A DNA stretch of 64,000 nt from the IMG/VR virus record IMGVR_UViG_3300012013_000859; one strand, 5' to 3'. Below, in pieces: positions 26,036 through 54,388 of this stretch. How positions within the stretch are numbered: position 1 is the stretch's first letter; each line of letters opens with the position of its first letter. The notes below the pieces were generated by a model. The model was not told the origin of the DNA and made no database searches. It saw only the letters and a list, made by a program, of their open reading frames with translations. Source of the stretch: an uncultured virus (IMG/VR IMGVR_UViG_3300012013_000859). Its lineage: Duplodnaviria > Heunggongvirae > Uroviricota > Caudoviricetes. The translations under genes were made by a program, and so were the position numbers.

Positions 26036-26623
26036 ATGAACAACAAATTTATTAATCTCTGGGAATCAGCTATTCAAAGATTTACCCGTGGTGGCTTTTT
26101 AGTTGGTGATTATATTAACTTTATCGATGATTACAAATCACATGATAGTTTTAAACAATTACCACAGGAATTACAAGATCAATTAGAAGATTTAACTACA
26201 AGTGGCCTGCATATCCGTGTTTTGAATATTAAAGATACAAATCCAGGTAGATACCCTGGTAATATTGATACACAAAATGGAAATAGTGTTGTTTTAGATA
26301 TTGCAGCTGATCATGGTGGAGGACGATACGTTGGGCAATTTACTATACCATGTTGTTTAGTGCAACGTATTGATTATTATCCGAATGTTGCACCTGCAAT
26401 ACCAGATGGGTTGATTAGACCCAATAAAACACAAATCAAACCAGTAGAATTTAAATTGGACAATGAGGAAATTGAGAGACGTACCAGAAATACTCAGCAA
26501 GATGATAGTGAAAAAGAATCTGATACAATGTTACCAACTAAAAACGTTAAAATACCAACGTCTGTTGCAAAACAGGCTAAATCACCTGCAGTCGCAAGTT
26601 ATACAGCTAAGTATTTGTCTTGA
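26036..26623 (+). CDS. Hypothetical late protein, possibly head-associated
   Basis: Clean ORF; N-terminus MNNKFINLWE; late box upstream. Confidence 0.6.
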   Translation: MNNKFINLWESAIQRFTRGGFLVGDYINFIDDYKSHDSFKQLPQELQDQLEDLTTSGLHIRVLNIKDTNPGRYPGNIDTQNGNSVVLDIAADHGGGRYVGQFTIPCCLVQRIDYYPNVAPAIPDGLIRPNKTQIKPVEFKLDNEEIERRTRNTQQDDSEKESDTMLPTKNVKIPTSVAKQAKSPAVASYTAKYLS

Positions 26624-27545
26624 TTAACTTTTGTACGTTAATTAAGCAAGCAAAAAAGTTGATTTCTTGATCAACACAGAAGCTACAACGGTACATATGC
26701 TCAGCTACCGTAACAATTGCTTCTGACTTATTAACAATCTTAGAGTTGTATATACATTCTAAGATAGCTTTCATTAAATTGTGATAGTCACCATAGAATT
26801 CACCTTCATTTTCAATTGCATATCGTCTACAACTAACGATATCTTTAGTTTGTAACTGTGTAAATAGTTGATTTGCAAACTTATCTACGTTAGATACATC
26901 CTTAATTGCTAAACAACCATTGAAACTTGACTTTTGCAGTTCATTAACAATCTTTCTTAAGTCAGGAAAGTAGGTTTTAACTAGTTTTAAGAATGGATCT
27001 TTTTGTTCTTTAGTTAAAGTAACGTTTTCAGCCTGTAATATGTTGAAACAACGTACAACTGCATCTTTTAACTCATAATTAAACGATAAAGTCTGGCATC
27101 TACTTTGTAATGCAGGTATGATTTTATGTTTATAGTTAGCAGTTAGAATGAATCGAGTGCTGATACTGTATTCCTCCATAGTATTGCGCATTGCTCGCAT
27201 TGCATCCCCTGATAATCCATCCATTTCATCACATATTACGACTTTAATGCCGCCATTAAGAGATTTCGTTTGTGCAAAACTGATTACTTTGTTACGAATT
27301 GTGTCAATACCGTTTTCATCACTTGCATTAATGTATAGATAATCACATTCCAAAATATGATTTACAATAATTTTTGCAATACTAGTTTTACCAACTCCAG
27401 GTGGTCCAACCAATAACAAATTCGGAATACTTTTATCTTCCTTGAATTTGTTTAATATGTCCCTAGTTTCAGAAGACAAAACGATATCGTTTAATGTCTT
27501 CGGACGATATTTTTCTGTCCAAATACTATGTATTGCTTCGATCAT
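26607..27545 (-). CDS. gp44: Clamp loader AAA+ subunit (gp44/RFC small subunit)
   Basis: WTEKYRPKTL, GPPGVGKT, INASDENGIDTIR, DEMD, LQSRC. Confidence 0.95.
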   Translation of the reverse strand: MIEAIHSIWTEKYRPKTLNDIVLSSETRDILNKFKEDKSIPNLLLVGPPGVGKTSIAKIIVNHILECDYLYINASDENGIDTIRNKVISFAQTKSLNGGIKVVICDEMDGLSGDAMRAMRNTMEEYSISTRFILTANYKHKIIPALQSRCQTLSFNYELKDAVVRCFNILQAENVTLTKEQKDPFLKLVKTYFPDLRKIVNELQKSSFNGCLAIKDVSNVDKFANQLFTQLQTKDIVSCRRYAIENEGEFYGDYHNLMKAILECIYNSKIVNKSEAIVTVAEHMYRCSFCVDQEINFFACLINVQKLIKTNT

Positions 27546-27885
27546 AAAAACGTTGTTGTGAAGGATCTGTTTTAAATGTGGTAAGTCGCATTAACTCTTG
27601 TTCTTCATCAGTTAATGCTTGTCCATCTCTATGTTTTGTTGCTATGTTTCTAAGTCTTTCTATTAATTCACTTTGCTCTTTTGTTAACTGAACTAACGGC
27701 ATTGTAAATTTTGTATCAATTTTTGATGTCATTGGTTGAACTCCAACAATATCTGATAGTTTTAATTCCGGAAATTTGTAGCCTTTAATTGCAGGCATTA
27801 CAATTTTGTTGAAATGTCGCCGGAAAAATAACTTATAATAAAGTCGTTTCCACCACGGGAGCGTTTTAATTAATGAATAACACAT
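27526..27885 (-). CDS. Small protein carrying a major-capsid (gp23 Gol-region) motif
   Basis: FNKIVMPAIKGYKFPELKLSDIVGVQPMTS; the rest of the 119 aa is not capsid-like. Confidence 0.65.
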   Translation of the reverse strand: MCYSLIKTLPWWKRLYYKLFFRRHFNKIVMPAIKGYKFPELKLSDIVGVQPMTSKIDTKFTMPLVQLTKEQSELIERLRNIATKHRDGQALTDEEQELMRLTTFKTDPSQQRFYDRSNT

Positions 27886-27889
27886 AATA

Positions 27890-28327
27890 TTACTTACCAG
27901 ATGACCCTAAACCTTTATCACCCCGTTTTGATTCAACCACATCATCAATAAACTCAACAGTTGATGGCCACACCTTTTCAACCTTCATCTGTGCAACTCG
28001 ATCACCAATTTCAAATGTATGGTCATTCTTACCAAAGTTATAAATTAATACATTCAAACTTCCACGATAGCCGCAATCTATCTCTCCCAAATGCGGTTGT
28101 AAATTATTTTTAAAACCTAAACCTGACCGCGGTTTAAACACTATACCAAACCCTGGTGTGATGTAACCTAATTTTAGCCCGACGTTGACAGTTGCATTAC
28201 CATGTGCAGGCACAACCGTACGTTCAACAGCATACATATCCCAACAATTATCATCATCATGTGCTTTAGTTGGTAAAGTTGCGTTGATATCCATTTTTAC
28301 AAATTTAATTTCTATATTTTCTTGCAT
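27890..28327 (-). CDS. dut: dUTPase (trimeric)
   Basis: PRSGL, GEIDCGYRG, GDRVAQM, RGDKGLGSSG; start ATG 28327. Confidence 0.95.
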   Translation of the reverse strand: MQENIEIKFVKMDINATLPTKAHDDDNCWDMYAVERTVVPAHGNATVNVGLKLGYITPGFGIVFKPRSGLGFKNNLQPHLGEIDCGYRGSLNVLIYNFGKNDHTFEIGDRVAQMKVEKVWPSTVEFIDDVVESKRGDKGLGSSGK

Positions 28328-28331
28328 ATTA

Positions 28332-28362
28332 ATTATAATATAATATGATATCAAAAAATCAA
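28332..28362 (-). promoter_or_regulatory. Sigma70-type promoter for dut-Gol-like gene-gp44
   Basis: TTGATT (28357-28362) with TATTAT/TATAAT (28332-28340) just upstream of the ATG. Confidence 0.55.
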
Positions 28363-28400
28363 TTCAGTTTATTTTTTAATTTTTTACCATAAATATTAAC

Positions 28401-44434: not shown

Positions 44435-45037
44435 TTATTTTAATCTAGTTCTTATTAAATTGTATGCATTTATTGCAGTTTGTTTGTTTACTTTTTTTGA
44501 CATACCATTAATAAATGAACCTAAATTACTATTGATTGCAAATTCTCGTAGTTTTGAAGCACTCATACCTTCTGTACCTTCAGAATCTGGATCTCTAAAC
44601 CCAGCTGATTCAACTTGATAATTTTCAAATTGAAATGGTATATTTCCACTTTTATCAGGTTTACCATTCAAACGATTTACTAAATTTTTGTAATCATCAA
44701 TACGGTCATCACCAGCTAATTGAATAATATTTGTGTATCCACGATTTTGTAATTCTTGTAAAATATGAATTAATGTATCCCCGTTACCGTTGATGATCAA
44801 TCTTGGCTCATCAGCAATCATTTCCTTTATAATTTTTACTTTTTCATTATATTCTAATGGATCCTTTTTATTATTAACTGTGTGGGATGGAACAATAACC
44901 CCAGTCGTGTTAAATTTATCACTTAATTCAGCTAATTTGTTGAATAATTTAGCATGTCCAATAGTCGGTGGGTTGAATCTACCATATGTAAATACAGCGG
45001 TTTTTTGATTGTTTACAAATGTTTTAAAGTTTTGCAT
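44435..45037 (-). CDS. HIGH-family nucleotidyltransferase (phage cytidyltransferase)
   Basis: FTYGRFNPPTIGHAKL, DPL...K, AGDDR, SAG.RDPD.EG..GMSASKLR. Confidence 0.9.
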   Translation of the reverse strand: MQNFKTFVNNQKTAVFTYGRFNPPTIGHAKLFNKLAELSDKFNTTGVIVPSHTVNNKKDPLEYNEKVKIIKEMIADEPRLIINGNGDTLIHILQELQNRGYTNIIQLAGDDRIDDYKNLVNRLNGKPDKSGNIPFQFENYQVESAGFRDPDSEGTEGMSASKLREFAINSNLGSFINGMSKKVNKQTAINAYNLIRTRLK

Positions 45038-46271
45038 CAGACATTTCTCCTATACTTTTAATTGCAAATTTCGATACAAAATTTAAATCAATTAAAGATT
45101 CTTTGGTATTTTTTATTTGTAACATATCTGGTAATATATCACCTGCAACATTTCTTAATTCAATTTTATACAACGCGCCGTTTTCAGTTGTTAAATTTAT
45201 TGTTAATTGTTTTGTTGATTTATCAATTGATGAAAAATATGGGTATTTAACAGATACAGAAGTAATCTTACCACCTACCAACCGTTCAACATTTACAGTT
45301 TCATTTAAATCCATTAATGTAACATCATTCAAGTTATTATATTTCAACAACCAATAACCATATCCATATGCAGATGCCAAGTATTTTATCATTACATCAG
45401 ATTCATTTGTTGTTGGTATAAATGTTTCAGTGTGTTCATTAATTGAAACTGTGCGATTTTTGTAATTTGTTAATTCTGTTGCAAATTTATCATAATCAAC
45501 ACGTAAACACTCTAAAAGTGATTTAAATTTGAATGATTTTGATGTGTGTTTGATTTCATTTTTTTCTTCAACAAACATACCACTTATTCCACTATTTGAT
45601 AATGTATTTTTTGAAGTTTTCAATGAAATATAAACATCTTCACCAGATTTAAGTTGAATTGTAATATCGCTGATTTTTTTACCTACATTATTTAATTCGG
45701 ATGATATTTCTCGTCTACTAGCTTTACCCTTTTCATATTGTATACCATCAATATTTTCAAATGATTCTATATCTGGTATATGTTGAATCATATTATCTAA
45801 TAAACCACCTAGTATTAACTCTTTATTGTCAATTTGTTGTTTTAATGATTGATGTACAGCTATTTCAAATTGTATACCTACATTTTGAGGTTTGGTATTT
45901 GTAATAATAATTGGTACACTAATACCGTCTTTTGTAAATACATATGTAACATATTTTTTACTTTTAGATTCATTAAATTTACCACCTTTTAATGTATACC
46001 TATCAAGTGGTGGTACCGGAGTAAATTCTGCTTGTATTGCAACTGCTATATTTTTTAATATTATGTCTACTTGCAATGGTTCATCTTTAACTTCATCAGA
46101 ACCCATGATTCTGAAACCTTTTTTCATAAGAACACTTCGTGTAAAGTGTTTATTTGGTGGTAACAGGTAACCATCAGAGTTGTCAACGACTTCATTGCCT
46201 AATTTGTTAATTTGGTTGGCTAATTCAACATCTTGTTTTTTATTTTCAATTATAAATTGTTGAAATGTCAT
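45024..46271 (-). CDS. PD-(D/E)XK endonuclease-like protein with CTS-like N-terminus
   Basis: GIQFE ... KISDITI....EDVYISLK; start ATG 46271 (MTFQQFIIE) after TATAAATA. Confidence 0.6.
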   Translation of the reverse strand: MTFQQFIIENKKQDVELANQINKLGNEVVDNSDGYLLPPNKHFTRSVLMKKGFRIMGSDEVKDEPLQVDIILKNIAVAIQAEFTPVPPLDRYTLKGGKFNESKSKKYVTYVFTKDGISVPIIITNTKPQNVGIQFEIAVHQSLKQQIDNKELILGGLLDNMIQHIPDIESFENIDGIQYEKGKASRREISSELNNVGKKISDITIQLKSGEDVYISLKTSKNTLSNSGISGMFVEEKNEIKHTSKSFKFKSLLECLRVDYDKFATELTNYKNRTVSINEHTETFIPTTNESDVMIKYLASAYGYGYWLLKYNNLNDVTLMDLNETVNVERLVGGKITSVSVKYPYFSSIDKSTKQLTINLTTENGALYKIELRNVAGDILPDMLQIKNTKESLIDLNFVSKFAIKSIGEMSDAKL

Positions 46272-46281
46272 ATACTTGTAA

Positions 46282-46289
46282 TATTTATA
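46282..46289 (-). promoter_or_regulatory. T4-type late promoter TATAAATA
   Basis: Exact consensus 10 nt upstream of ATG 46271. Confidence 0.75.
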
Positions 46290-46322
46290 TAAACACAATT
46301 ATGTATCAATGAATTGTTATTA

Positions 46323-47849
46323 TTAATTTAAACTATCCCAAATACCACCTATTGCGTTGTATGGATTTAATGTTACTTGTTTATCGAGTGCAATCTTTTG
46401 TTTCTGTTCTTTAACTTCTTTCGGTGATAACCTAACACCGTTTATATACCAACCTCCCCTATCGCCATGTCCAACTACAATTGCTGGACCATCTGTGCAA
46501 TGCAATTTATCATTTTGAAAATACTCGTCATTACCTTTACCATCAGTTGTTGCTGGTAAGGATTTACCTGTTACTGGGTCTTTTTCATCTCGATGTTGCA
46601 TATTATTAAAATACCATGCTTTAGCACCATCCTCATATACAACTGCTGGTAATGTTAATCCTGTTTTTGGATCTTTTTCTGTACGTTCTATTATTGCATG
46701 TTCAGGGTCTTTATGGTACCATTTAGTGCCATATTTATCAACTTCAAGATATGGTGGACCAACTTGTATTTTACCTTTAGGGTCTTTATAATACCACCAT
46801 GTTCCATCTTCTTCACGGTAAGCACCTGGATGATATATCTCATATACCTGGAGTTGCTTTGATTCTTTTAAAATTGGTTTTTGTTCATCTTTATTTTTTT
46901 GTTCTTGATTTGCAAAAAATGTAGGGGTATTAACTTTAAACATGAACGGTTTATCGCCTATATTTAATTTTATTACAATACCTTCAAATTCGCCCAGTCT
47001 TCCTGCAACTGTCATTGCAGTTGCAAGTATTTTTTGATAAATCGATTCTTGGATGGGAGCAATAGCTTGTTGAATATATGATTTATATTGTTTTCTATTG
47101 GCTACATCCTCACGTTTAAGTGATTTGGAAGAAATTACTACTTGTAAATCTGGGTATTTTACGTTAATATCACTAATAATATTGTTAGCTGCTACAATAT
47201 CAGCTCTTAAATTAATGTCAGGAAATATTTCAATATAAGCAGGTAAAAATTTAACTTCATCTGTAGATAATTTCACCAAACGTGTTGTGATATTAGGTAA
47301 ATTTTTACCATTTAAATCTGTACATTTTATAATAACAAATGTTGACCATTTACCAAGTTTAACTGTATCATAATCGGTAGCAACAAAATAAACCATCCCG
47401 GGTTTATTTTCACGTTCAAGAGCTAATGGTGAATACAACCACTCCGCTTGAATAATTACACCATTTTTAACATTTAACAATGCGGGGTACACTAATTCTC
47501 TCAATTTATTAAAATTGCTTTTAAATGCTTCTTTTACTGGTGGGTATTTAATTGTAGATTCAAATTCTTCAGGGTCTGTTACTATACCTGAATAGCTACT
47601 TTGCATAAAGAATTTACCATCTGCTAGAAATCCAAACTTCAAAGCTATTCCATCTGCTTTTTCTGATAGTTCCGCATTTGAACTTTTAATAACACCCCGT
47701 TCTTTATTAAGAGCATCTATAAACTCAACAAACGTATTGTATTCCATTGCAAGATGCGATTTTGTTGGATGGTACAAATGTGGTATACCCACCCTATCAC
47801 CTTGTTTTGCTTCTATAAAAATGTGTTGTTTAAATGTTAATGGAGACAT
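46323..47849 (-). CDS. ATP-dependent ligase-like nucleotidyltransferase plus C-terminal beta-hairpin repeat domain
   Basis: Motif I EKADG, III IQAEW, IV EGIVIK, V FKV; C-terminal HRD...LPA / LHCTDGPAIV...WYING repeats. Confidence 0.7.
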   Translation of the reverse strand: MSPLTFKQHIFIEAKQGDRVGIPHLYHPTKSHLAMEYNTFVEFIDALNKERGVIKSSNAELSEKADGIALKFGFLADGKFFMQSSYSGIVTDPEEFESTIKYPPVKEAFKSNFNKLRELVYPALLNVKNGVIIQAEWLYSPLALERENKPGMVYFVATDYDTVKLGKWSTFVIIKCTDLNGKNLPNITTRLVKLSTDEVKFLPAYIEIFPDINLRADIVAANNIISDINVKYPDLQVVISSKSLKREDVANRKQYKSYIQQAIAPIQESIYQKILATAMTVAGRLGEFEGIVIKLNIGDKPFMFKVNTPTFFANQEQKNKDEQKPILKESKQLQVYEIYHPGAYREEDGTWWYYKDPKGKIQVGPPYLEVDKYGTKWYHKDPEHAIIERTEKDPKTGLTLPAVVYEDGAKAWYFNNMQHRDEKDPVTGKSLPATTDGKGNDEYFQNDKLHCTDGPAIVVGHGDRGGWYINGVRLSPKEVKEQKQKIALDKQVTLNPYNAIGGIWDSLN

Positions 47850-48546
47850 TATATTTTGTTGTTAGTGTTTCTTGTGCACCTTGTAATAATTCACGAACTT
47901 GTTCTGGATTCAAATTTTCTTTTAATTTTGATACAATACTTGGAATATTAAAAAGATCTTTTGCTGTAGCTGTATTATCATCAAATAATATTTCAGCTAT
48001 TTCATCCGGATCAGTTGAAATGACATTTGATGCTTCACGATCAACTAAACCATCACCGGATAAAAATTTCATATCACGGGCTTTTGCTAGACATGCCAGA
48101 ATAATATTTCTATGCACACCTTTTAATGGTAATGTTTCATTATTTGCTAAATAAAATTTTGCAAATTCTAAATTATTTACGAATAAAAAATCTGTTTGTC
48201 CATATTGTTCGGTATCTGGAATTTGAGTTTTAAAATGTATTCCTGCTCCGGTTCTACGGACATATTCAGATGCATCAAGATCATTCTCTTTACAATAATT
48301 CAAAAGACTATTATAAATTGTATCCCTTTGAGATTTCAAGGCACCAATATCAATATCACCACTAATTTCTTTTTTGCCAGTGGATCCTAATAGATTATTT
48401 GACAAATCTATGTTTAAAATTTTACTTAAATTGTCAACCATTTTCAAAACATCTGTTTTTTTGATATTTGTAGTAGCACTGGTTCCGTCTGCATTTTTAA
48501 ATACATTACCACCTTCCAATAAAATAAATTGTTTGAATGTTACCAT
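47830..48546 (-). CDS. Pol-beta/PolX-family nucleotidyltransferase
   Basis: LLGSTGKKEISGDIDI, third Asp in QTDF, thumb-like HRNIILACLAKARDMKF..DGL; start ATG 48546. Confidence 0.8.
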   Translation of the reverse strand: MVTFKQFILLEGGNVFKNADGTSATTNIKKTDVLKMVDNLSKILNIDLSNNLLGSTGKKEISGDIDIGALKSQRDTIYNSLLNYCKENDLDASEYVRRTGAGIHFKTQIPDTEQYGQTDFLFVNNLEFAKFYLANNETLPLKGVHRNIILACLAKARDMKFLSGDGLVDREASNVISTDPDEIAEILFDDNTATAKDLFNIPSIVSKLKENLNPEQVRELLQGAQETLTTKYNVSINI

Positions 48547-48559
48547 AATTATTTTATAT

Positions 48560-50251
48560 TTAATACCCTGACTGTAAAAAAGTCCAACCATCGTCTTTTA
48601 AATCATCAGCATCTTTGTTACTTTCAGAGTTGCCAAGTAAAAATGGCAGTGCATGCCCTTGTGTTAAACTGTTTTGTTGATTTGAATATATTGAAGTTGG
48701 GTTGATAAAATACTTTAAACCGTAATCTAATTGTTTGATCCGTAACGGTTTATTATTATCATCTCTTTGAATTACTTCAAAATATTTTTCTACCATTGGT
48801 TCAGACAAAATAAACAATGCCCAAATTAACGACATTACTCGGTCATCATGTTTACCAGATTCTGCTGACCAACTTCCATTAGCATTACGATTAAATGTTT
48901 TTAATTCATTTAGTGTACGTACATCTTTAATAATAACAGACTTTACCGTGTTTATCCAATATCTTTCATTTATAATTGCTTGATATTTTACATTTATATG
49001 TGAAATAATACCTAATCTAACTTTGTCTCTTATAATAATAGATGCACCGTAACTTACAATATTTTCATAATTGTAATCTTTTCTTAAATTGTCGACCACA
49101 CCAGCTCCGCAATTATTACGTTCAATAAGTGCTAATGGTTTGCCCCAGTTTAATAAAATTTCATGCAATTTTGGTGTAAATTCAATTGGTGTAATTGAAT
49201 TTGAATGATAACAAGCAACTTGTTTAATTTCACGTAAATCTGTTATGTCTAAAATTTGTATACATGATGCATCTTGATTTATGCCTTCGGAAATATCAAC
49301 ACCCGCAACATATAAATGATCGGCTTGTGGAACTTCCCATATACTGTAATGATCACCATCAACAAGAATTTCAGGTTTCGTACAATGCATTTTCATACGC
49401 TCAAACAAATCAATATCAATAGATGATTCACCAGATTCATTGAATGAACATGCAAACTCACGATCAAATGCAGTAGGATCACTCATGGAAGACATAGTTT
49501 CCTTTTTCCATTTTTCATCTCTACCAGGAACTTGATCCCAAGTAACTTTCATATGTGCCCAGTTGTTTTCATCTTTTACTGCACCTGCATAAATTTTGTA
49601 AAACAACCCCGATGTGTCTCTTGGAGTTGAACACATCACAATTTTTGATTTCTTGGAAGATGAAATAATTGGGTAAACTGATGCCCAAAATTCATTTAAC
49701 ATTCCTGGATCAATCCAATCTGCTTCATCAATCATTAATAGATTACAGCTGGATCCACGTGCAGCTGTACCGGTTGTGGTTGAAATACCAATTTGACTAC
49801 CATTTTCAAGCTCTAATGATTCTTTACCATATGTTTCAGTTGGAGACTTCAACCAGTTCGGTAAACCCTCATAAGCTACACGAATACGTTTGAAAATTTG
49901 TTTAGCTGTACTTTCTTTATTAGCTACAATTAGAATGTTTTGATTTTCATTAAATATCGCTTGCCATAAACATAAAATTGTTGAAATTGTAGATTTTCCA
50001 CTTTGACGAGCAAATAATAAAATTGAAAACCTATTTTCTTTCATTAATTTGATTGCTTTTTTCTGATATTTGTGCAATTTAATCTTTTGTTTACCTTCAT
50101 CCAAGTTGATAATGTAGAAATAATTTTCTGCAAAATACAATACATCGTTTGCACATTTTTGCATTTCCTTTACCATTTCTGGTGTATATTCAAACATTGA
50201 ACCAACAGCTGGTAAATTAGGATTGTTTAAATAATGTGTTTTTTTAGCCAT
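48560..50251 (-). CDS. gp17: Terminase large subunit gp17
   Basis: ARQSGKS, LENGS, LMIDEA, STP, REFAC.F, GVDISEG..D.S, IERNNCG, HDDRVMSL; start ATG 50251. Confidence 0.97.
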   Translation of the reverse strand: MAKKTHYLNNPNLPAVGSMFEYTPEMVKEMQKCANDVLYFAENYFYIINLDEGKQKIKLHKYQKKAIKLMKENRFSILLFARQSGKSTISTILCLWQAIFNENQNILIVANKESTAKQIFKRIRVAYEGLPNWLKSPTETYGKESLELENGSQIGISTTTGTAARGSSCNLLMIDEADWIDPGMLNEFWASVYPIISSSKKSKIVMCSTPRDTSGLFYKIYAGAVKDENNWAHMKVTWDQVPGRDEKWKKETMSSMSDPTAFDREFACSFNESGESSIDIDLFERMKMHCTKPEILVDGDHYSIWEVPQADHLYVAGVDISEGINQDASCIQILDITDLREIKQVACYHSNSITPIEFTPKLHEILLNWGKPLALIERNNCGAGVVDNLRKDYNYENIVSYGASIIIRDKVRLGIISHINVKYQAIINERYWINTVKSVIIKDVRTLNELKTFNRNANGSWSAESGKHDDRVMSLIWALFILSEPMVEKYFEVIQRDDNNKPLRIKQLDYGLKYFINPTSIYSNQQNSLTQGHALPFLLGNSESNKDADDLKDDGWTFLQSGY

Positions 50252-52694: not shown

Positions 52695-53564
52695 ATGGAT
52701 AATATTATTTTTGAAATTTCCGGTGGTATTGGTAAAAATATCGTTGCAACAGCTGTTATAAGAGCACTTAAAAAACAGTACCCGGAAAAAAACATTATAC
52801 TACAAACAGCATACCCGGAAATATTTTTAAATAATCCAAATGTTTACCGTGTATATCGACATGGTGCACCGTACTTTTATGATAATCATATCAAAGATCA
52901 CAACACACAATTTGTGTTAAATGATGTGTATAGGTGTTCTAGTTATCTTTTAGGGTTGAAGTCTCAAGCAGAATGTTGGTGTGAACAAAATAATATCCAA
53001 TTTGATGGCAAACACCCTGATCTGTATTTGAATCCGCTTGAACTTCAACGAGCACGAAACAAAATACAAACCCAAAAACCTTTGTTATTAATCCAACCAT
53101 TTTGTGGTTTTTCAACAGAAGTTAAATATAACTGGAATAGAGATATACCACCACAACAAATAACTGAAATTACTTCAGTTTTATCTAAAAAATATGATAT
53201 ATTTCAAATTGCACGTCCAGATCAAATTCAAGTTCCAAATACCACACTGTTTCATTCAAATGATCTTAGAGAACTGCTTGGGGTAATTGCTATAAGTGAT
53301 GCTAGATTAGGTGTAGATAGTTTCATGCAACATGCAGCTGCTGCATTTAACTTGCCATCAGTTGTATGTTGGATAACAAATACTCCATTGGTAGCTGGGT
53401 ATAATTCACATACAAATATATATCCATCTGCAGATACAAACCCCAATATTTCAACAGTCAACGGTAATTATCAATTACATGATTTCAATGGTGGTAATAC
53501 ATTTGATTTCCCGTTCTACCATACTAATATATTTGATATCAACCAAATTTTATCAAACTTTTAA
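52695..53564 (+). CDS. Glycosyltransferase, GT9 (heptosyltransferase-like, GT-B fold)
   Basis: GGIGKNIVAT..I..LK..YP, PEIFLNNPNV, LRELLGVI..SD..LGVDSFMQHAAAAFNLPSVV.W. Confidence 0.85.
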   Translation: MDNIIFEISGGIGKNIVATAVIRALKKQYPEKNIILQTAYPEIFLNNPNVYRVYRHGAPYFYDNHIKDHNTQFVLNDVYRCSSYLLGLKSQAECWCEQNNIQFDGKHPDLYLNPLELQRARNKIQTQKPLLLIQPFCGFSTEVKYNWNRDIPPQQITEITSVLSKKYDIFQIARPDQIQVPNTTLFHSNDLRELLGVIAISDARLGVDSFMQHAAAAFNLPSVVCWITNTPLVAGYNSHTNIYPSADTNPNISTVNGNYQLHDFNGGNTFDFPFYHTNIFDINQILSNF

Positions 53565-54388
53565 TGGAACATAAAAACATTTTTTTCAATTCGTCAATGC
53601 CTCGTTCTTGTAGTACTTTATTACAAAACGTATTGATGCAAAACCCCTCTATTTTTGCAACCCAAACTGACCCGGTATTGGAATATTTGTACGCAGCAAG
53701 AATCAATTATACTGATTCCACAGAAGTAAAAGCACAAGATGCTACAATTGCATTAAAAAACTGGCGAGGGTTTTGTTGGGGTGGTTTGAATGGGTATACC
53801 ACTGCATATACAGATAGACCCAATATTTGTATAAAAACCCGTGGTGGTACAATTCACTATAATTGGTTCAAACAATTCATGCCATATCAACCAAAAATGA
53901 TATGCATGGTTAGGAATTTAAAAGCAGTTATCGCATCAATGGAAATGTTATTCCGTGCTAATGTTGAAAAACATCAACCTATTGAAAACCATGCACAATT
54001 AAGTGGTAATAATACATTAAAACGCATCGATTCATTTCTTGCATCTCCTCCGATTGGATTAGCTCTTGACCGTATTAAAGATTGTTTTCAACAAGGAATT
54101 AATAAGCATGTATTGTATATTCGTGCAGAAGATTTTTGTTCATTTCCAACCAGAGAAATAAACAAAATTTACAATTATTTAGAATTGCCTGAATTTAAGC
54201 ACAATTTTGATAATATTGAGCAATATACACAAGAAGATGATAGTGTGTATGGATTGTCTCCAAATTTACATACAATACGTAATGTATTACAACCAATTAA
54301 AGATAATAGTGTATCAGTTCTTGGTGTTGATGCTTGTAAATGGATTGATAATAATTATCAATGGTACCAACAATTGTTTAATTATTAA
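53564..54388 (+). CDS. Sulfotransferase family protein
   Basis: 5'-PSB loop SMPRSCSTLL, 3'-PB ICMVRN...VIAS, IRAEDF...P...INKIYNYL. Confidence 0.85.
   Translation: MEHKNIFFNSSMPRSCSTLLQNVLMQNPSIFATQTDPVLEYLYAARINYTDSTEVKAQDATIALKNWRGFCWGGLNGYTTAYTDRPNICIKTRGGTIHYNWFKQFMPYQPKMICMVRNLKAVIASMEMLFRANVEKHQPIENHAQLSGNNTLKRIDSFLASPPIGLALDRIKDCFQQGINKHVLYIRAEDFCSFPTREINKIYNYLELPEFKHNFDNIEQYTQEDDSVYGLSPNLHTIRNVLQPIKDNSVSVLGVDACKWIDNNYQWYQQLFNY

Follow-up and report, generated by a model that had tools for sequence, protein, structure and literature searches.

Why should an uncultured T4-like phage of fresh water carry, in a small gene between those for dUTPase and the clamp loader, a peptide that resembles a part of the major capsid protein? 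This is the question raised by the ORF at 27526-27885 on the minus strand of the window, that is, of the whole 64,000-nt stretch of DNA that was analyzed. The window is a T4-like myophage region of 31% GC with baseplate, tail, terminase, primase, and ribonucleotide reductase genes, and the nearest terminases of cultured phages are only 33-35% identical to its own. It was found in freshwater, lake, and viral metagenomes; 13 runs contained at least half of its words, and some of its words were present in 20 of 24 metagenome rows from 17 studies. The ORF codes for 119 aa, and its translation reproduced exactly the peptide read at residues 28-54 (27724-27804) in a preliminary description of this DNA. 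The position given there, between dut and gp44, was borne out by the dUTPase (PF00692) and gp44 (PHROG 168) matches on either side (Table 1). The gp23 gene of the phage itself is absent from the 64,000-nt window, according to Pfam and PHROG annotation and a gp23 segment profile run in six frames.

Table 1. Features of the accessory ORF and its surroundings, with portal-derived pieces from other records (positions refer to the window unless a record is named).
Feature	Position	Strand	Remarks
Sigma70-type promoter-like element	28332..28362	-	ends 4 nt before dut ATG; 9/12 consensus matches
dUTPase (dut), gene 1 of unit	27890..28327	-	Pfam PF00692, E=1e-16
Accessory ORF with gp23-derived segment	27526..27885	-	starts 4 nt past dut stop; 20-nt overlap with gp44 start
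Codons 1-8, two exchangeable alleles	27862..27885	-	in-frame ATG 1-4 nt past dut stop in both
Residues 9-29, basic aromatic-rich predicted helix, net +6	27799..27861	-	putative membrane-surface anchor
Residues 27-54, diverged gp23 Gol-region segment	27724..27807	-	core 38-53 at 27727-27774
Residues 69-101, helical hairpin without known family	27583..27681	-	pLDDT about 75-79 in model
gp44 clamp loader large subunit, gene 3 of unit	26607..27545	-	PHROG 168, E=5e-78
Portal (gp20) pieces, most conserved segment, 74-156 aa frames	G028:C1:108632-108760	+	L368-L371
Portal (gp20) pieces	G025:C1:197662-197715, 304991-305071, 313841-313900		L368-L371; three in one 379-kb record

A structure model of low confidence (pLDDT 51) placed a helix at residues 11-34, disorder at 28-66, and a hairpin at 69-101, with the Gol-like segment (residues 27-54) modeled at pLDDT below 50. 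Foldseek-type fold searches gave no match to this model at E<=0.001, and the flanks of the segment are not gp23-like, in agreement with the earlier statement that the remainder of the protein is not capsid-like. We infer that residues 9-29 associate with the membrane. The UPF0291/YnzC helical hairpin, considered as a lead for residues 69-101, was rejected, as none of 31 family members had a Pfam match and Foldseek found 3bhp only at E=5. PHROG 1452 (gp5.5-like) was too weak a match to the ORF (E=0.09) to be retained. Separately, 26 stretches of a 5774-aa repeat protein, P0011, match residues 52-99 at 33% identity, and these may reflect either a real hairpin family or a compositional match.

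The ORF is regarded as a lineage-specific insertion, because dut directly abuts gp44 in all 18 of the relatives that could be checked (about 5 distinct junction types); these were the loci with enough upstream DNA among 19 carrying gp44 at 51-56% identity. The preliminary description had placed the gene behind a TTGATT/-10 promoter instead of a late box. The count of promoter-like sites in the window is by itself not above chance (23 found vs. 32.2 ± 5.1 expected), and the spacing of the element is imperfect (16 nt to TATTAT or 19 nt to TATAAT). However, a TTGA..TATA element lies just before the dut start in 14 of the 15 relatives listed, the 15th being incomplete, and the 70 nt ahead of each of dut, the ORF, and gp44 contain no ATAAATA late-type box. 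Boxes of this type stand close to the start codon in 18 of 60 window ORFs, many of them structural, and one is located at 28389-28395. These elements support a conserved sigma70-type unit formed by the ORF with dut and gp44, and from the sigma70-type element and the lack of a late box we infer early expression. One RNA run yielded a single 160-nt contig, located in gp44, and zero coverage of the ORF. TTGA-type elements precede dut and the primase, exonuclease, and gp32 genes, and Shine-Dalgarno sites are scarce by eye. A terminator-like hairpin on the plus strand at 27845-27863 was discarded; it is altered in the other allele, and 2 such hairpins were found vs. 1.7 expected by chance. Elsewhere in the window, a cytidyltransferase gene (PHROG 3041/395) with three ORFs without a PHROG match next upstream occupies 44435-48591, and a plus-strand pair at 52695-54388 resembles, by its motifs, a glycosyltransferase and a sulfotransferase.

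Library models matched the ORF weakly. Pfam Gp23 (PF07068) gave E=0.0041 and 17 bits, under the curated cut-off of 24.4, with the match confined to the model start and to less than a fifth of its 376 positions, and PHROG 138 (major head protein) gave E=0.021. The ORF was accordingly rejected as a T4-type major capsid protein (PF07068), having 119 aa, a score below the cut-off, and no HK97 fold match. A profile of gp23 segments only, whose score leans high because 10 of its 13 gp23 rows were fetched with the ORF's family as query, gave the ORF 33.7 bits vs. a maximum of 9.2 in 5000 shuffles (2808 reported), and its sole strong match in six frames of the window was the ORF (E=2.2e-9). The hhalign probability for the segment was 96.6. 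In addition, a profile of such segments, the ORF included, matched residues 93-119 of T4 gp23 in the PDB, which we take to be the Gol region as named in the preliminary description. About 12 of 27 residues are identical to this T4 stretch (counted by eye), and the C-terminal half of the stretch is kept. Together, the profile comparisons confirm the segment as a genuine homolog of the T4 gp23 Gol region. Against the gp23 of relatives with 51-52% gp44 identity, the ORF is 41-44% identical over about 36 residues, and it scores 56-63 against the gp23 type of its relatives vs. 37-50 against other gp23 types, so it probably derives from a capsid gene of its own broad clade.

Conservation of the motif in homologs had been proposed as a check. 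Ten homologs at 73-95% identity were found among 13 candidates, and 30 once cluster members were added; the segment is intact in all 30, which are all close and were found via shared words. The contigs that carry the homologs reach 140 kb in length. A phmmer search for distant orthologs over 1.84 billion representatives returned only one family member and two repeat proteins. Residues 55-119 searched against longer proteins gave no longer or fused form among 63 candidates, a protein atlas search with the ORF gave no usable match, and DNA pattern searches recovered near-identical copies only. Many homologs are called from Met30 rather than from the long start. The long start is nevertheless likelier, because residues 9-29 are conserved (1 of 21 columns varies among 7 long-start sequences), differences within them in 4 DNA copies are exclusively synonymous (3 synonymous, 0 replacement), and the two alleles of codons 1-8 each retain an in-frame ATG just past the dut stop. 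Each of these alleles (27862-27885) is found with long as well as with short C-terminal forms of the family, which suggests that recombination has taken place at the dut junction. The mean pairwise difference amounts to 0.014 for residues 9-29, 0.159 for 30-37, 0.027 for 38-53, 0.245 for 54-66, and 0.139 for 67-107. Residues 38-53 form the least variable 16-residue window within 30-107 (permutation p=0.005, for a window picked after looking and homologs that are all close and share words), and a Fisher test on variable columns gave p=0.08 for this core.

These data bear on the simplest alternative, that the likeness is due to chance or that the ORF is a decaying remnant of gp23, the latter having been foreseen in the preliminary description. 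The Pfam score below the cut-off fits such an explanation, as does the finding that 9 of 31 family members are without any Gp23 match. On the other hand, none of the 31 sequences is broken, the 59-aa entries being later start calls; the ORF carries clade-typical gp23 residues, and the regions that flank the segment do not continue it as gp23. Chance alone is ruled against by the profile score relative to the shuffles and by hhalign. We therefore consider this explanation very improbable, and it is largely refuted by the intact family, the profile score, and the hhalign result. On sequence evidence, the ORF is an accessory phage gene whose gp23-derived peptide module is real and has been maintained.

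The same segment occurs in other small genes. A DNA pattern for the core heptapeptide, with the usual gp23 continuation excluded, retrieved 58 viral loci. With the seven searched residues masked, 29 of them were frames shorter than 200 aa with independent support, belonging to 10 unrelated groups, while 3 were canonical gp23 and 26 were divergent gp23, weak, or chance matches. The masked comparisons show that the Gol-region segment occurs as a mobile sequence module in 10 or more mutually unrelated groups of small ORFs. The segment profile also matched 602 of 1012 candidate proteins of 18-209 aa. Besides the closest homolog of the ORF, 119 proteins were listed, of which 19 are N-terminal gp23 fragments and 100 are not; an LRW-like tail ends 71 of these 100 mini-proteins, and none of the 100 links to the ORF outside the motif. 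Dense arrays of 60-140 aa paralogs with an LRW-like tail were seen at L353-L356 and L363 (G041, G037, G005, G010, and G020), where some members have an N-terminal gp23 piece and the carrier domain matches no Pfam family above threshold. Divergent gp23-like paralogs (237-396 aa) that are separate from the main capsid gene were observed at G003:C1:176460-178020 (L229) and G025:C1:326794-327525.

Related mini-proteins pass the Pfam Gp23 cut-off and are labeled major capsid protein in databases, so that many of them are mislabeled. In the first viral scan, all 79 loci kept (from the best 80 of 215) were gp23 genes. Among the matches listed for cultured phages, comprising all 14 in one search and the best 60 of 964 in another, there was no small-ORF copy, and a Ralstonia match among them proved to be a full gp23, not a mini-gene. 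The literature searched, which covered few subscription papers, contained no description of free-standing gp23 or portal fragments, and mini-genes with pieces of head proteins are apparently an undescribed class.

Comparison with the gp23 of the same genome was possible in several records. A full gp23 and a mini-gene coexist in G002 and G004 (terminal repeats) and in G001, which are complete or near-complete records. With 7 of the 25 positions compared having been part of the search pattern, the mini-gene shares with its own gp23 19/25 residues in G005 (3/17 codons the same at identical residues), 13/25 in G001 (1/12 codons), 12/25 in G002 (2/11 codons), and 22/25 in G004 (12/20 codons), the last being recent-looking. 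The best-scoring gp23 for the mini-gene was not of its own genome's type in 4 of 7 records. At G004:C1:35442-36100 (L232), two adjacent ORFs carry near-copies of the Gol region of the phage's own gp23. One of these ORFs is a frame of 86 aa, and in the other the near-copy is embedded in an unrelated protein of 182 aa; the capture looks recent. The copy in the window is atypical. It has changed an arginine and an alanine that are both invariant in the 100 top-scoring module examples, an invariance that is partly a product of ranking by score; it has a one-residue insertion relative to the module and has lost the arginine pair of T4; and its masked score of 6.7 bits is tied lowest among the 29 supported loci. 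Judged by its sequence, this copy is among the most diverged of the class and a weak representative of it.

Capture is not limited to the Gol region. A profile of the gp23 backbone helix found 9 small frames in 8 of 46 records, 8 of them with E<0.005 and none searched beforehand, and the gp23 C-terminal motif was found in a few further small frames of the 46 records. Neighboring genes in the small-paralog arrays of G037 and G010 carry different gp23 pieces. With a portal segment profile, 2 records yielded 4 small frames (E from 2e-4 to 0.04; Table 1), with the portal motifs kept by eye. No credible capture was obtained with a gp44 segment profile, which matched only two long frames and, at E=0.005, one frame of 36 aa. 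These controls are small: they comprise a single segment each of portal and gp44, and most of the records had been selected because they contain a mini-gene. Whole-protein queries with gp23, portal, and the gp47-like protein in 22 records found Gol-region fragments only, and they are weak controls because they missed fragments seen by the segment profiles. When the gp23 C-terminal motif was scanned for without a filter, no small ORF turned up in 73 decidable matches from the best 80 of at least 120 loci; this outcome cannot be set against that of the filtered Gol scan and did not serve as a control. In L139:1229-1666(-) and P0128, hardly any sequence separates the Gol segment from the gp23 C-terminal motif that comes after it, although the two are about 290 residues apart in gp23. 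Since other gp23 and portal segments are captured too, the mini-gene class is not Gol-specific, and the results point to the capture of conserved head-protein pieces in general.

Such promiscuity raises the possibility that the segment is a by-product of gene shuffling, serving as linker or filler while the job of the protein lies in its helix or hairpin; accessory genes of large T4-like phages would acquire pieces of core genes, of which only conserved ones stay recognizable. The capture of several segments of several genes fits this proposal, and so does a patchy spread: at E<=0.1, a Gol mini-gene was found in none of 24 records that had not been chosen for one, with one weak case, G013, at E=2e-4. 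The strong divergence of the ORF copy and the conservation of residues 9-29, which equals that of the motif core, are further points in its favor, as is the slight excess of motif identity in four orthologous mini-genes (20-24/29 in the motif vs. 49-70/86-89 in the rest). A mere filler would, however, sit uneasily with the low variability of residues 38-53 within 30-107 and with amino acids kept while codons are saturated in G005, G001, and G002. Nor was a credible capture found of a gp44 segment by profile or of the gp47-like protein by whole-protein query. A segment that is a mere by-product of shuffling is doubtful on balance, though the most serious of the competing explanations.

The preliminary description had proposed a pre-capsid decoy that titrates capsid-sensing defenses, or a translation modulator that binds EF-Tu. 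Much of the decoy idea stood, namely a gp23-derived, stand-alone segment, intact in 30 homologs, in a conserved sigma70-type unit; specificity for Gol, a faithful copy, and the fit to Lit or Avs sensors did not. According to the accessible text of the relevant reports, Gol bound to EF-Tu promotes cleavage by Lit (PMC3014915), and EF-Tu makes up 6-10% of the proteome (PMC13581612). Titration of Lit or EF-Tu fits poorly because Gol activates Lit and EF-Tu is too abundant to titrate easily, and an early faithful copy of Gol would be expected to trigger Lit. Titration of Avs7, Avs8, and Avs10 also fits poorly, because these sensors bind the folded A-domain of the major capsid protein through large interfaces (PMC13581612, as far as its accessible text goes).

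We favor, with a probability of roughly 0.35, the reading that the ORF product imitates nascent capsid protein early in infection, in association with the membrane, and so antagonizes a host defense that reads peptides. The gene, an accessory insertion at the dut-gp44 junction that would be transcribed together with its neighbors from the sigma70-type promoter, would have been assembled from three modules: a basic aromatic helix, a diverged gp23 Gol segment, and a helical hairpin. The protein would be made before capsid synthesis, reside at the inner face of the membrane, and display its unstructured capsid peptide, which would imitate nascent capsid protein without causing activation. By occupying a host defense component that reads a linear stretch, the mimic could prevent later gp23 synthesis from being sensed, and the lost arginine pair may be a change that keeps binding and removes activation. 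As the known STAND sensors need folded domains and Lit is activated by Gol, the sensor would be of an undescribed kind. This reading is favored by the real homology, the conserved core at 38-53, the insertion relative to 18 of 18 relatives, and the supported small frames at 29 of 58 loci. It is also consistent with captured pieces that come from gp23 and the portal, but not credibly from gp44; capsid and portal proteins are known immune triggers, the portal being sensed by Avs11, in the accessible text of PMC13581612. Likewise, the phage protein DSAD1 offers a precedent for blocking a sensor at its trigger site, since it blocks DSR2 there in competition with the tail tube (accessible text of PMC11087589). 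Against the mimic stand the tied-lowest masked score, the slight motif excess in the four orthologous mini-genes, the 4 of 7 records whose best gp23 was not of their own type, and the small controls in mostly selected records. The helix-segment copy in G005 (9/26 residues; 7/9 codons identical) also weighs against it, showing no synonymous saturation.

The segment could instead be a docking tag for EF-Tu or GroEL, abundant housekeeping factors of which nascent capsid protein already makes use, by which such a factor would be brought to the membrane or early translation or folding dampened. The accessible text of PMC3014915 describes Gol as a 29-residue region, the most conserved part of gp23, which in T4 binds domains II and III of EF-Tu and inhibits its GTPase, and that of PMC3012670 reports that the gp23 N-terminus targets fusions to GroEL. 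A tag-like placement is also seen: in 81 of 100 examples, the module is confined to the N-terminal 45% of the protein. The captured backbone-helix, C-terminal, and portal pieces would be left unexplained, however, and in the ORF only about 12 of 27 residues agree with those of T4, the arginine pair being absent. We hold a docking tag to be unlikely.

A further possibility is that the protein acts on head assembly, the peptide entering gp23 lattices at the membrane and either poisoning the heads of co-infecting relatives or tuning or riding the phage's own. T4 proheads assemble at the membrane, every captured piece found comes from head proteins, and the presence of different gp23 pieces in adjacent genes of G037 and G010 would be in keeping with such an action. 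In 3 of 100 mini-proteins and in L166, a tryptophan-lysine helix resembling that of the ORF is joined to the segment in unrelated proteins, and this too can be counted for it. A near-identical copy such as that of G004 (22/25) would nevertheless hit the phage's own heads, and the ORF lies in an early-type unit without a late box. This explanation, too, appears unlikely.

Returning to the reading of the ORF as an early mimic of nascent capsid protein, its extension to the whole class is more tentative: large T4-like phages may repeatedly excise conserved pieces of head proteins (at least 3 gp23 segments and the portal), graft them on small carriers, and express them early as non-activating decoys, among which the ORF would be a membrane-tethered, detuned Gol decoy. 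If so, the class would point to undescribed defenses that read linear capsid peptides. If the ORF is indeed a mimic, phages would be building decoys from the immune trigger itself, and the captured pieces would map the capsid and portal stretches that hosts read. The copies in G004 and G005 are better test cases than the diverged copy of the window.

Compared with known systems, the ORF is closest to the Gol/EF-Tu/Lit system of prophage e14, which it resembles in the homologous segment (T4 gp23 93-119). It differs in that the segment is free-standing in a 119-aa gene of early type and not within a capsid protein, and in its identity of about 12/27, the lost arginine pair, and the one-residue insertion; for Gol, the accessible text of PMC3014915 gives a 20-residue core with 13 key residues, by number only. 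The likeness to the PF07068 Gp23 family is confined to the weak match at the model start, whereas less than a fifth of the model is covered and the HK97 fold is missing. EF-Tu is also part of one capsid-sensing complex, in the accessible text on the Avs sensors (PMC13581612) and on CapRel-SJ46 (PMC9712102). Avs7, Avs8, and Avs10 sense folded domains, for which the 28-residue, presumably unstructured peptide of the ORF would be a poor decoy. DSAD1 is not described as a fragment of its trigger in the accessible text of PMC11087589, unlike the capsid-derived segment of the ORF, but the proposed mode is alike in both, in that a sensor of structural proteins would be blocked at the binding site of its trigger.
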